A DNA stretch of 64,000 bases, taken from assembly GCA_951406725.2 (NCBI GenBank), contig OX597821.1, positions 22,258,001 to 22,322,000 on the forward strand, written 5' to 3'. A program made the translations under genes and the position numbers. Below the pieces are notes generated by a model. That model searched no databases. It saw only the letters and a program-made list of their open reading frames with translations, and was not told the DNA's origin. Positions 9,241 to 61,000 of the stretch are shown here, one piece after another; the stretch's first letter is position 1, and every line of letters starts with the position of its first letter. The stretch is from Octopus vulgaris (lineage: Eukaryota).

Positions 9241-9265
9241 ATGAGCGCACACATCCTTTATATAT

Positions 9266-9489
9266 ATTTCTTTACTACCCACAAGGGGCTAAACACAGAG
9301 AGGACAAACAAGGACAGACAAAGGGATTAAGTCCATTACATCGATCCCAGTGCGCAACTGGTACTTAATTTATCGACCCCGAAAGGATGAAAGGCAAAGT
9401 CGACCTCGGCGGAATTTGAAACGTAACGGCAGACGAAATATGTCTACGCATTTCGCCCGGCGTGCTAACGTTTCTGCCAGCTCGCCGCC
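9266..9489 (-). mobile_element. SINE family B, long Tx1-type tail (B1), full length
   Basis: Head GGCGGCGAGCTGGCAGAAACGTTAGCAC, central GCCTTTCATCCTTTCGGGGTCGATAAA.TAAGTACCAG (resembles Nin/Deu-type SINE domains), tail GCCCCTTGTGGGTAGTAAAGAAATA. ATCCTTTATATAT is repeated on both sides (possible TSD). Confidence 0.9.
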
Positions 9490-9506
9490 TTGATATATAT
9501 ATCCTT

Positions 9507-42228: not shown

Positions 42229-42646
42229 ACCTATTTCTTTATTACCCACAAGGGGCTAAACATAGAAGGGACAAACATGGACAGACATAGGTATTAAGTC
42301 GATTATATCGACCCCAGTGCGTAACTGGTACTTAATTTATCGACCCCGAAAGGATGAAAGGCAAAGTCGACCTCGGCGGAATTTGAACTCACAACGTAAC
42401 GGCAGCCAAAATACCTATTTCTTTATTACCCACAAGGGGCTAAACACAGAGGGGACAAACAAGGACAGACATAGGTATTAAGTCGATTACATCGACTTCA
42501 GTGCGTAACTGGTACTTAATTTATCGACCCCGAAAGGATGAAAGGCAAAGTCGACCTCGGCGGAATTTGAACTCACAACGTAACGGCAGCCGAAATACCG
42601 CTAAACATTTCGCCTGACGTGCTAACGTTTCTGCCAGCTCGCCGCC
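42229..42646 (-). mobile_element. SINE B1 head plus two tandem body/tail units
   Basis: Junction AATAAAGAAATAG|GTATTTTGGCTGCC near 42415. Confidence 0.93.
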
Positions 42647-43215
42647 TTTTCTGCCACTGTGTGACTGGTGGAGAGGGTGATCCCAAACAACATCGCCGCC
42701 GCCGCCGCCGGCTCGACATGACATGGCTACAATGGTGATACTTTAGAACATAAACTACCAAAAGTGGTAAATAGCTGACGGTGAGGAAAGGGTGTGAGTG
42801 GAGAAAGGTCACAGAGGTCAAAAGTTCAATGTCAGATGTTGCTATTTGCTTCGGGCTGCTATAATTAACTTAATTACAACTTAATTACAATCTGGCGTCG
42901 CTGATTTTTATGGAAACACGGACGCAGTTGATGTGATAGTGCTAACGGTAGTGGAGGCGGTGGGGGCGGCGGTTGCGGTGGTTGTGGTGGTGGTTGTGGT
43001 GGTGGGTGTTATTAGAATGTTGTGGGTGTTGTAGTCTTGTGATGCTGCCACAAAAGATGTGTGTTGGCAGTTGTGTTATAGTGGTGACATTGTGATGTAG
43101 TGTCTGGATTTTGGTTTTGCTGTTGTACTGTAGTGTGGGTGGTAGTTGTGTTGTGGTGGTTACATTTGTGTGGTGTCGGTGGTTGTATTGTTGTGGTATT
43201 GTAGTAGTATTTATA

Positions 43216-43378
43216 GGCGCAGGAGTGGCTGTGTGGTAAGTTGCTTGCTTACCAACCACATGGTTCCCAGTTCAGTCCCACTGCGTGGCACCTTGGGCAA
43301 GTGTCTTCTACTATAGCCTCGGGCCGACCAAAGCCTTGTGAGTGGATCTGGTAGGCGGAAACTGAAAGAAGCTCGTCG

Positions 43379-43428
<50 letters not shown>

Positions 43429-43624
43429 TATATGTTTGTCCCCCTAACATCGCTTGACAACTGATGCTGGTGTGTTTACGTCCCCGTAACTTAGCGGTTC
43501 GGCAAAAGTAACCGATAGAATAAGTATTAGGCTTACAAAGAGTAAGTCCTGGGGTCGATTTGCTCGACTAAAGGCGGTGTTCCAGCATGGCCGCAGTCAA
43601 ATGATTGAAACAAGTAAAAGAGTA
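43216..43624 (+). mobile_element. SINE A, full length
   Basis: Family consensus match. Confidence 0.95.
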
Positions 43625-43859
43625 GTAAGATCGCAGTTTCGATTCCCGTACCTGTCAGTGACACATCATTTCTATTTGGCTGCACCTGCGCAAATTTTAA
43701 GTAGACCAAATTTTAAAATTTTCACTAAACTTTAAAATTTCCACAGATGCAGCCACTTTTCAATTTCTTTAGTTTTTCTTCCAATACGCTAAATATGAAA
43801 CCAATTTTTTTTTTTAAATTAAGAAATTGAAAAGTGGCCGCCAATCAGAGATCCCAAAA

Positions 43860-44060
43860 CATTCCATTTCACCTTGCTTCAGTCCACTCAGCTGTAAATG
43901 AGTACCAGCAATAGCTGGAAAGTTAACTCTGCTACAGACCGGCGTCCCATCCAGGGGCTTATTGTAATCCCAGTTACTTATAGTAATGATGGTGATGCAA
44001 TCCTCCTGATGTAGGAGGACTTCTTGAGCCAATCGAGAAAACTCCGCAGATCCAAGATCC
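43860..44060 (+). mobile_element. Old composite SINE relic (CORE-like, Deu-like and V-like segments)
   Basis: TTTCACCTTGCTTCAGTCCACTCAGCTGTAAATGAGTACC..GACCGGCGTCCCATCCAGGG. Confidence 0.5.
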
Positions 44061-44509
44061 CCCTGAAAGCTAAGACCTAGCGCCTTCTCTAACTGTAGTT
44101 CACCGACATAGTATTTAAACTGATCATATCAGGCCCAATGCATCTACCTGTTTTATATTCAAAATGGCCGCATCTGGCCTCTCATACCTACCGTACAATG
44201 TCATTGTGAAAATAAACACTCACATCATCGAAATCTTGAAGCTACAAGATGATGCATGATTAATTCAAAACTGTGCATAAATAAGCGTTATATTCGAGAG
44301 AATAATCTGAATGGCAAAGGGTTATATTAATAGTGGCCACATCCACTCCTGTCATTTTCGCTACTCTCACTAAATTTCCAGTAAATATACTTGAGGACAA
44401 CACTGCCCTTTTTCATAATGGAACTCGAAAAAGTCAGTGAGGGTTCTACTAAAGAGGTAAGTCTCTGTCATCACGGCTCTCAGCCTCATCTACCATACAA
44501 TTTCTTAAC

Positions 44510-45340
44510 CAAAATCCTTTCTGTTATAGGCCCAAAGCCTGAAATTTTTGGAGAAGGAGCCAGTCGATTAGATCAACCGCAGTGCGTAACTGGTACTTTA
44601 ATTTATCGCCCTCGAAAGGATGAAAGGCAAAGTCGACCTCGGTGGAATTTGAACTCAGAACGTGAAGATAGATGAAATACCTATTTCTTTACTAGCCACA
44701 AGGGGCTAAACACAGAGAGGACAAACAAGGACAGACAAACGGATTAAGTCGATTATATCGACTCCAATGTGTAACTGGTACTTATTTAATCGACCCCGAA
44801 AAAAATTAAAGGCAAAGTCGACCTCGGTGGAATTTGAATTCAGAACGTAGCGGCAGACGAAATACTGCTAAGCATTTCACCTGGCGCGATAACTTTTCTG
44901 CCAGTTCGCCGACTTATTAACTTTAACCTTTTAACAATAATAATAGTTCTTTCCAATTTTGGCACAAGGCTAGTAATTTTTAAGGGAATGATAGTCGATT
45001 ATATTGACTCCAGTACGTGGCCGGTATATATTTTATCGACCCCGAAAATAGGAAAGGCAAAGTCGATCTCGGAGAAATTTGAACTCAGAATGTAAAGAGT
45101 CAAAAGGAGAGCTGCTGAGGATTTTGTCCCGCTTACTAACGAATCTGCCAGGTTGCCGCCTTAAAATTTTGGATAAAGGGGGTTAGTTGATTACATTGAC
45201 CCCCAGTGCTCAACTTTAAAATTTTGGTTAAAGGGGATTGGTTGATTACATTGACTGCAGTGCTCAACTGGTACTTATCTTATCTACCCCCGGAAGGATG
45301 AAAGGCAAAGTCGAACTCGGCAGAATTTGAACTCAGAATG
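44510..45340 (-). mobile_element. Head-to-tail SINE B cluster, including a B1 unit inserted into a B2 copy
   Basis: Junction AGTAAAGAAATAG|GTATTTCATCTATC near 44680; further copies at 44945-45162 and 45165-45340. Confidence 0.9.
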
Positions 45341-47105: not shown

Positions 47106-47370
<265 letters not shown>

Positions 47371-47739: not shown

Positions 47740-48415
<676 letters not shown>

Positions 48416-60841: not shown

Positions 60842-61000
60842 GTTTCTTTATTGGCCACACAGGGCTGCACACAGATGGAACAAGTTACAAGGTAGAGCTT
60901 TTCTTTTGGGGGATGAAGAGAACAAAAAACAAAAGAAAAAAAGGGGTGGCGTAGGTTTTCGATCAAGAGGGATCATAAAAGGGAAGAAAAGAACAAAAAC
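60842..61000 (-). mobile_element. Tx1-type LINE 3' end abutting (ATCT)n
   Basis: Paralogue of 47213-47370. Confidence 0.7.

Follow-up and report, generated by a model that had tools for sequence, protein, structure and literature searches.

Two loci on the minus strand of the window, the 64,000-nucleotide stretch of Octopus vulgaris contig OX597821.1 analysed here, carry arrays of a SINE family, SINE B, which we take to be tRNA-derived with respect to the origin of its head. These arrays and a comparison case are as follows (window positions).

42599..42646, minus strand: head of locus 1, tRNA-like with an A-box-like motif (48 nt)
42415..42598, minus strand: unit 1 of locus 1, a core with the B-box-like GAGTTCAAAT and a B1 (Tx1-like) tail, TAA variant
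42409..42423, minus strand: J1 junction of locus 1, AAGAAATAG followed directly by GTATTT
42231..42414, minus strand: unit 2 of locus 1, identical to unit 1 at 177/184 positions; the flank after AAAGAAATA starts GGTA
44866..44914, minus strand: head of locus 2
44681..44865, minus strand: B1 unit of locus 2, core and B1 tail, TAG variant
44675..44689, minus strand: J1 junction of locus 2
44516..44680, minus strand: downstream partner in locus 2, a core with a B2-type tail, for which no sibling copy was detected (best non-self matches 86-91%)
9265..9491, minus strand: B1 monomer with the 13-nt TSD ATATATAAAGGAT, an off-site insertion serving as comparison case

Locus 1 is thus a head followed by two 184-nt units (96% alike, 7 differences); in locus 2 the head is followed by a B1 unit and then by a core whose tail is of B2 type. 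An earlier note on this DNA had described the B1 tail as running into the same internal head position at both loci, and this is readily seen: on the minus strand ...TAAAGAAATAG directly abuts GTATTT at 42415/42414 and 44681/44680, the position of the GTATTT that stands behind the head at 42598 (locus 1) and 44865 (locus 2). It had argued that the B2 tail at 44680 speaks against simple tandem duplication; the locus 2 partner does have a tail of B2 type, and duplication cannot make B1+B2 pairs of different tails and ages. No flanking TSD was found at either window locus, and in locus 2 the upstream unit is 8.5% diverged as compared to 6.1% for the downstream unit, so that the upstream unit is not the younger. 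With neither a TSD nor an age asymmetry, nesting is not proven by these two loci taken alone. Immediately upstream of locus 2, positions 44960-45340 contain an older SINE of B2c type and a partial core in which 55 nt are tandemly duplicated. Tail-to-head abutting is frequent among SINE B copies (also at 47809-48413 and in L064).

Genome-wide, a 17-mer spanning J1 is matched exactly 60,153 times in the 2.8-Gb assembly, the reversed control 3 times, and a 24-mer of the B1 tail 101,678 times. Roughly one third to one half of B1 tails terminate at J1; at least half of all B1 ends are off-site. The exact junction was found on 12 of the 30 first-listed B1 tails, 10 of these 12 entering a SINE core; conversely, 28 of the first 30 J1 matches continue into a core, the other two (L016, L022) being monomers with a GGTATTT-like flank. 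A sample of 664 kb, the window together with 600 kb drawn from random stretches, contains 58 B1-tailed units; a B1 tail is followed by a core at J1 in 28 cases and at a second junction, J2, in 5. The enrichment of 3′ junctions that the earlier note had proposed to tabulate is evident, J1 lying far above the ~1.2e-4 rate expected of random insertion at this base.

Four tail types are distinguished, with divergences from their own consensus of 6.4% (B1), 9-11% (B2a), 14.6% (B2b) and 15.7% (B2c). In the random sample, 11/15 B2a, 5/28 B2b and 1/36 B2c units are placed behind B1, and exact B2a matches genome-wide number 4,269 behind J1 and 3,319 behind a head, a comparison between patterns of unequal stringency. 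The family is high-copy, dispersed and TSD-flanked (a TSD near the tail in 30/53 B1 monomers), and the parsed arrays contain 2-5 units of mixed subfamilies. A- and B-box-like motifs in head and core were recognised by eye. Searches of the SINE with ARAGORN and Rfam gave no match, and its predicted folding shows no unusual stability (z -0.69); the idea of a ribozyme or of splicing at the junction found no support and was dropped. One 10-kb stretch (L069:4670) contains two near-identical B1+core arrays in inverted orientation.

The B1 tail resembles the 3′ ends of two LINE groups, whose partner role for SINE B is discussed below. Presumably the partner LINE is a member of the Tx1 clade. One group is associated with (TATC)n and has two 3′ ends in the window.

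60843..60990, minus strand: 3′ end of a Tx1-like LINE associated with (TATC)n, whose tail is homologous to that of B1
47216..47300, minus strand: second 3′ end of the (TATC)n LINE group, followed by (TATC)n

The 3′ ends of the other group, the J1 LINE, were examined in 20 of 39 listed relatives, taken best first with one short match skipped. Among these best 20, 16 end at J1 and continue into a SINE core (two of the 16 are near-identical and 7.5 kb apart), two end at the site motif followed by other sequence, one ends deeper in the core and one is off-site. Two J1 LINE copies end exactly as the B1 TAG variant does. No LINE junction was encountered at J1 in 716 cores, so the J1 LINE is rare. 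Of 28 tails of the (TATC)n group, 26 open with C(A/T)TATC, and J1 is not used by any of them. When J1 was searched for LINE tails of the (TATC)n type, 24 matches came up, and every one of these strings has a B1-like tail end. The B1 tail agrees with the J1 LINE in 38/48 aligned columns and with the (TATC)n LINE in 37/50, so the J1 LINE fits hardly better. Protein searching recovered the (TATC)n group only, with a 1149-aa ORF2 carrying PF03372, PF00078 and PF13966 (APE-type endonuclease, RT and C-terminal zinc finger); for the J1 LINE group the scan was limited to a 345-aa C-terminal frame, which carries PF13966 and is 52% identical to the (TATC)n group. Taken together, these data confirm that self-targeting of the SINE at one nucleotide is real and genome-scale, and that the site is common to the SINE and a LINE.

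Several further LINE observations are noted here. The (TATC)n group is young, many copies keeping the 1149-aa ORF2 at ~98% identity (including L416:2539-5985). The J1 LINE copy whose relatives were listed above, 5 kb long, stands in L414 with a head on one side and a J1 array on the other. In L434 and L436, J1 LINE 3′ ends are followed by the 13-nt site motif and then by identical unrelated sequence; these may be stacked elements. A further LINE whose tail is related terminates within the head of a different abundant SINE (L415:7437-7671; L084:4424), of the type found at window positions 43216-43440, which implies at least three target-specific LINE groups.

The sequence into which a B1 tail runs varies with the tail. 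Off-site flanks start with GG in 49/67 cases for TAG/TAA tails (p ~1e-6) and with A in 16/22 for CAA tails (p ~1e-9). J2, the other self-junction, lies in the A-box-like region: tails that end in AAATAAGAA run there into the head at AGAA(A/T)CGTTAGCAC; the 26 cases are mostly of CAA/CAG variants (L004:786, L010, L099, L107 and others). A few B2a tails also terminate at J2 (L143, L361, L364). At 22 TSDs, positions where just one side agrees with GGTAT favoured the downstream side 13 times and the upstream side 2 times (p=0.007), so that the B1 RNA likely carried GGUAU. The J1 LINE has a CAA-type tail and yet uses J1, so the link between variant and target may also reflect different partner LINEs. 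Endonuclease and RNA pairing probably both contribute to target choice. The earlier note had offered a Tx1 endonuclease or tail-target microhomology as directing B1 into pre-existing heads; the LINE at the same base (16/20) and the GGTAT microhomology of the tail variants lend support to this, whereas J2 and the one-headed state of most arrays (73/77) had escaped it.

Direct evidence of insertion comes from arrays with two heads. A double-head pattern gave 91 matches, and in 24 of the first 30 inspected (23 loci) the structure is nested at J1: an old head, a ~15-nt duplication (GGTATTT plus ~7-12 nt), a full B1, GGTATTT and the remainder of the older SINE. Of the other six, three end in flank and three are without a recognised B1 tail. 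In 12 cases the duplicated piece is closer to the downstream partner and in 3 to the insert, with 9 ties (p=0.035); three of the comparisons were out of register. A control site gave 49 matches, and none of the 10 fetched (7 distinct loci) contained a nested insertion there; the clearest are 5′ partial duplications within a single TSD. Such duplications of the head and part of the core, at times repeated, occur in L192, L198-L200, L167 and L185. One TSD encloses the whole L192 duplication, which suggests that the RT jumps between RNAs.

Double heads account for 4/77 headed J1 arrays (~5%); the remaining 73 (~95%) are single-headed, with a head of the incoming B1 type. Plain insertion fails to explain these arrays, and the old head has likely been overwritten in them. 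An older 5′ part was sought in the single heads and none was found, the heads being B1-type over their whole length; the B1-only head variant GCGTAGCC occurs in 15/48 single-head arrays, 15/53 B1 monomers and 0/56 B2 monomers. We parsed 70 of the 4,269 J1+B2a matches, of which 61 have a B2 tail and 48 are single-headed with a clear head. In these 48 the downstream B2 is 7.9% diverged and the first-unit B1 4.0%, with B2 the older in 39 vs 4 (p=2e-7); stand-alone B2a copies are 7.5% diverged. A first sample, whose loci partly overlap the later one, likewise gave an older downstream unit in 28 vs 4 of 32. In B1+B1 arrays this age asymmetry is absent (13 vs 15). CpG decay is 14% in downstream units and 22% in B2a monomers.

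Further observations concern the TSDs and other organisms. Several young-B1/old-B2 arrays have perfect TSDs. TSD mismatch is 5.1% for B1, 7.3% for B1+B2 and 6.8% for B2a (p=0.32), values that lean to nesting and do not separate the models; approached in three ways, this clock gave no separation. Organism B has a summed junction depth of 0.76 relative to core, organism C one of 0.08-0.10, a weak hint only, as depth is not copy number. Organism C contigs at L330 span the junction of flank and head by 40-58 letters and extend for 22 letters into the B2 tail, short of the 31 letters that the bridging rule asks for; in one contig the last 13 letters, at the head/core boundary, are unaligned. A SINE is probably present at L330 in organism C.

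We consider it probable that B1 is pasted into heads of its own family by Tx1-like LINE enzymes, aided by pairing of the RNA end, and that the old head is overwritten. The scheme builds on a site common to the LINE lineage and B1, whose tails are homologous. The LINE endonuclease would nick the head ahead of GGTATTT, and read-through B1 RNA from copies at such sites, ending GGUAU(UU), would pair with the nicked end, as the flank data suggest. Ordinary completion would leave two heads and a ~15-nt TSD, as seen in the ~5% of arrays described above. In the remaining arrays the new cDNA may instead anneal over the homologous old head and replace it, which would leave one B1-type head ahead of an older core and tail. 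The GGTATTT site would be kept after each insertion, and repeated rounds together with some local duplication could build arrays of 2-5 units. The ready promoter proposed in the earlier note is an unlikely benefit, since the insert comes with its own A- and B-box-like motifs and the old head does not usually survive.

Against this explanation weigh the missing age asymmetry of B1+B1 arrays, the perfect TSDs of several young-B1/old-B2 arrays, the lower CpG decay of downstream units than of B2a monomers, 4 pairs of downstream units sharing at least 3 variants, the near-equal fit of the B1 tail to the two LINE groups, the off-site B1 ends and the rarity of the J1 LINE. It also requires complete head replacement, and template switching predicts a single B1-type head directly. 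In such a single event, the RT on B2 (or B1) RNA of a decayed copy would halt at GGUAUUU, jump by microhomology to the 3′ end of a B1 RNA, and the chimera would integrate whole, true nesting being confined to the ~5% double-head class. The wholly B1-type single heads, the indistinguishable TSD ages and the 5′ partial duplications within one TSD, which show that jumps happen in the SINE family, all agree with this. It needs an exact stop at the J1 base, however, and headless units starting there are rare: only 24/716 cores have neither head nor tail upstream, mostly with decayed heads. Two tested partners were without a source sibling among the 40 candidates scored for each, and the use of the identical DNA base by a LINE is left unexplained. 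We regard template switching as the general cause as unlikely.

Still less likely, in our estimation, is that after some nesting many loci are transcribed as B1 plus partner and copied as a unit, with one master dimer as the extreme. TSDs do flank whole arrays (32/69 B1+B2a), B2a matches are mostly behind B1, and downstream units have a B1-type first base in 15/44 cases as compared to 3/24 monomers (p=0.08). Against this, a single master is excluded by the age difference of the halves, and partners include B1, B2a, B2b and B2c. Mutations of downstream units are mostly private and star-like: 11 pairs share at least 2 variants vs 12.7 expected, and 4 pairs share at least 3 vs 0.6 expected. The unequal ages and the mostly private mutations reject the master dimer with shared mutations that the earlier note had named as fatal to its proposal. 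None of the 11 pairs sharing downstream variants also shares upstream ones, a result from 48 samples, with which a version drawing on thousands of sources may be compatible.

Tandem duplication at the locus, or unequal crossover, following insertion and seeded by GGTA(TTT) at the two unit ends, is refuted as a general cause and the least probable of the three, since it is unable to produce B1+B2 pairs that differ in tail and age or TSD-bearing double heads, and private variants are shared in only 1/48 B1+B2a pairs; it likely contributes to B1+B1 arrays, in some of which (L001-3, L149, L160, L317) units have private variants in common, a pattern that points to local duplication, as may the 96% likeness of the locus 1 units.

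Comparisons with known systems draw on portions of the cited papers. In crocodilians, SINEU-3 and Tx1-Mar share a preferred repeat site, 313/347 SINEU-3 copies being flanked by Mariner-N4_AMi, and tandem SINEU-3 copies arise by sequential insertion that sandwiches the TSD (PMC4494074). In the octopus, too, SINE B1 and a LINE use one target site. That target is the SINE's own head, unlike the unrelated DNA transposon described for SINEU-3/Tx1-Mar, and most products are one-headed; the SINEU/Tx1-Mar head is snRNA-derived, whereas the octopus SINE is without an Rfam match. Sequence-specific insertion into multicopy targets is described for other Tx1-clade elements, namely Tx1L in Tx1D, Keno (U2) and Kibi/Koshi (microsatellites) (PMC4494074). 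The octopus sister LINE resembles Kibi/Koshi in using (TATC)n; as far as that portion goes, none of these elements targets a tRNA-type SINE bearing the LINE's own tail, unlike the octopus case. For R2Ol, SART1Bm and R1Bm, priming is more accurate or more efficient when the 3′ end of the RNA carries a few bases of the target (PMC6530143, PMC7265360). In the portions drawn on, that pairing is experimental and concerns autonomous LINEs in rDNA or telomeres, whereas pairing of the octopus SINE is inferred from junctions.

Squamate SINE-derived satellites and Dip multimers (PMC10702118) and bivalve tandem SINEs (PMC11481361) are ascribed, in the parts used here, mainly to duplication or unequal recombination. 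As there, the tandem units of the octopus correspond to a portion of the SINE and one terminal unit is longer; unlike there, the arrays are short (2-5), dispersed and of mixed-age subfamilies, and share a LINE target site. The parsed sample thus lacks the long homogenised arrays of a SINE-derived satellite (sSat), and with halves at 7.9% vs 4.0% and four partner types it departs from the equal ages and fixed combination of an Alu-like master dimer. A 3′ tail homologous to a LINE 3′ end, expected of a SINE, is present, as is the sequence-specific insertion of Tx1-type elements (16/20 at J1; 26/28 at C(A/T)TATC in the sister group). Octopus L1-Tx1 and SINE counts have been published, in the portion available to us, apart from any target analysis (PMC13282606). 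Our literature search, with Repbase and Dfam entries outside its reach, found no description of a self-targeting SINE/LINE system. By these sequence features, the octopus system appears to be a variant of the SINEU/Tx1-Mar kind, with the crocodilian system its closest counterpart.

A more far-reaching form of the overwriting model is put forward tentatively, at somewhat less than an even chance. In this closed loop, one LINE lineage would both carry the SINE and insert into it, the SINE RNA would inherit the landing sequence as a 3′ guide, and the tail variant would set J1 or J2; homology between RNA and target on both sides would allow scarless insertion overwriting the old promoter head, and tens of thousands of decayed SINEs would have been re-headed. 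If true, this would be natural RNA-templated, homology-directed editing at genome scale. The arrays also call for caution in repeat annotation, where they will be misread as satellites or dimeric families. The usual relation of LINE and SINE would be inverted here, the passenger multiplying the carrier's target. Tens of thousands of datable natural events bear on whether targets are chosen by the endonuclease or by RNA-DNA pairing, and on how the 5′ junction is completed when the cDNA is homologous to the target, both questions being relevant to retrotransposon-based gene writing.
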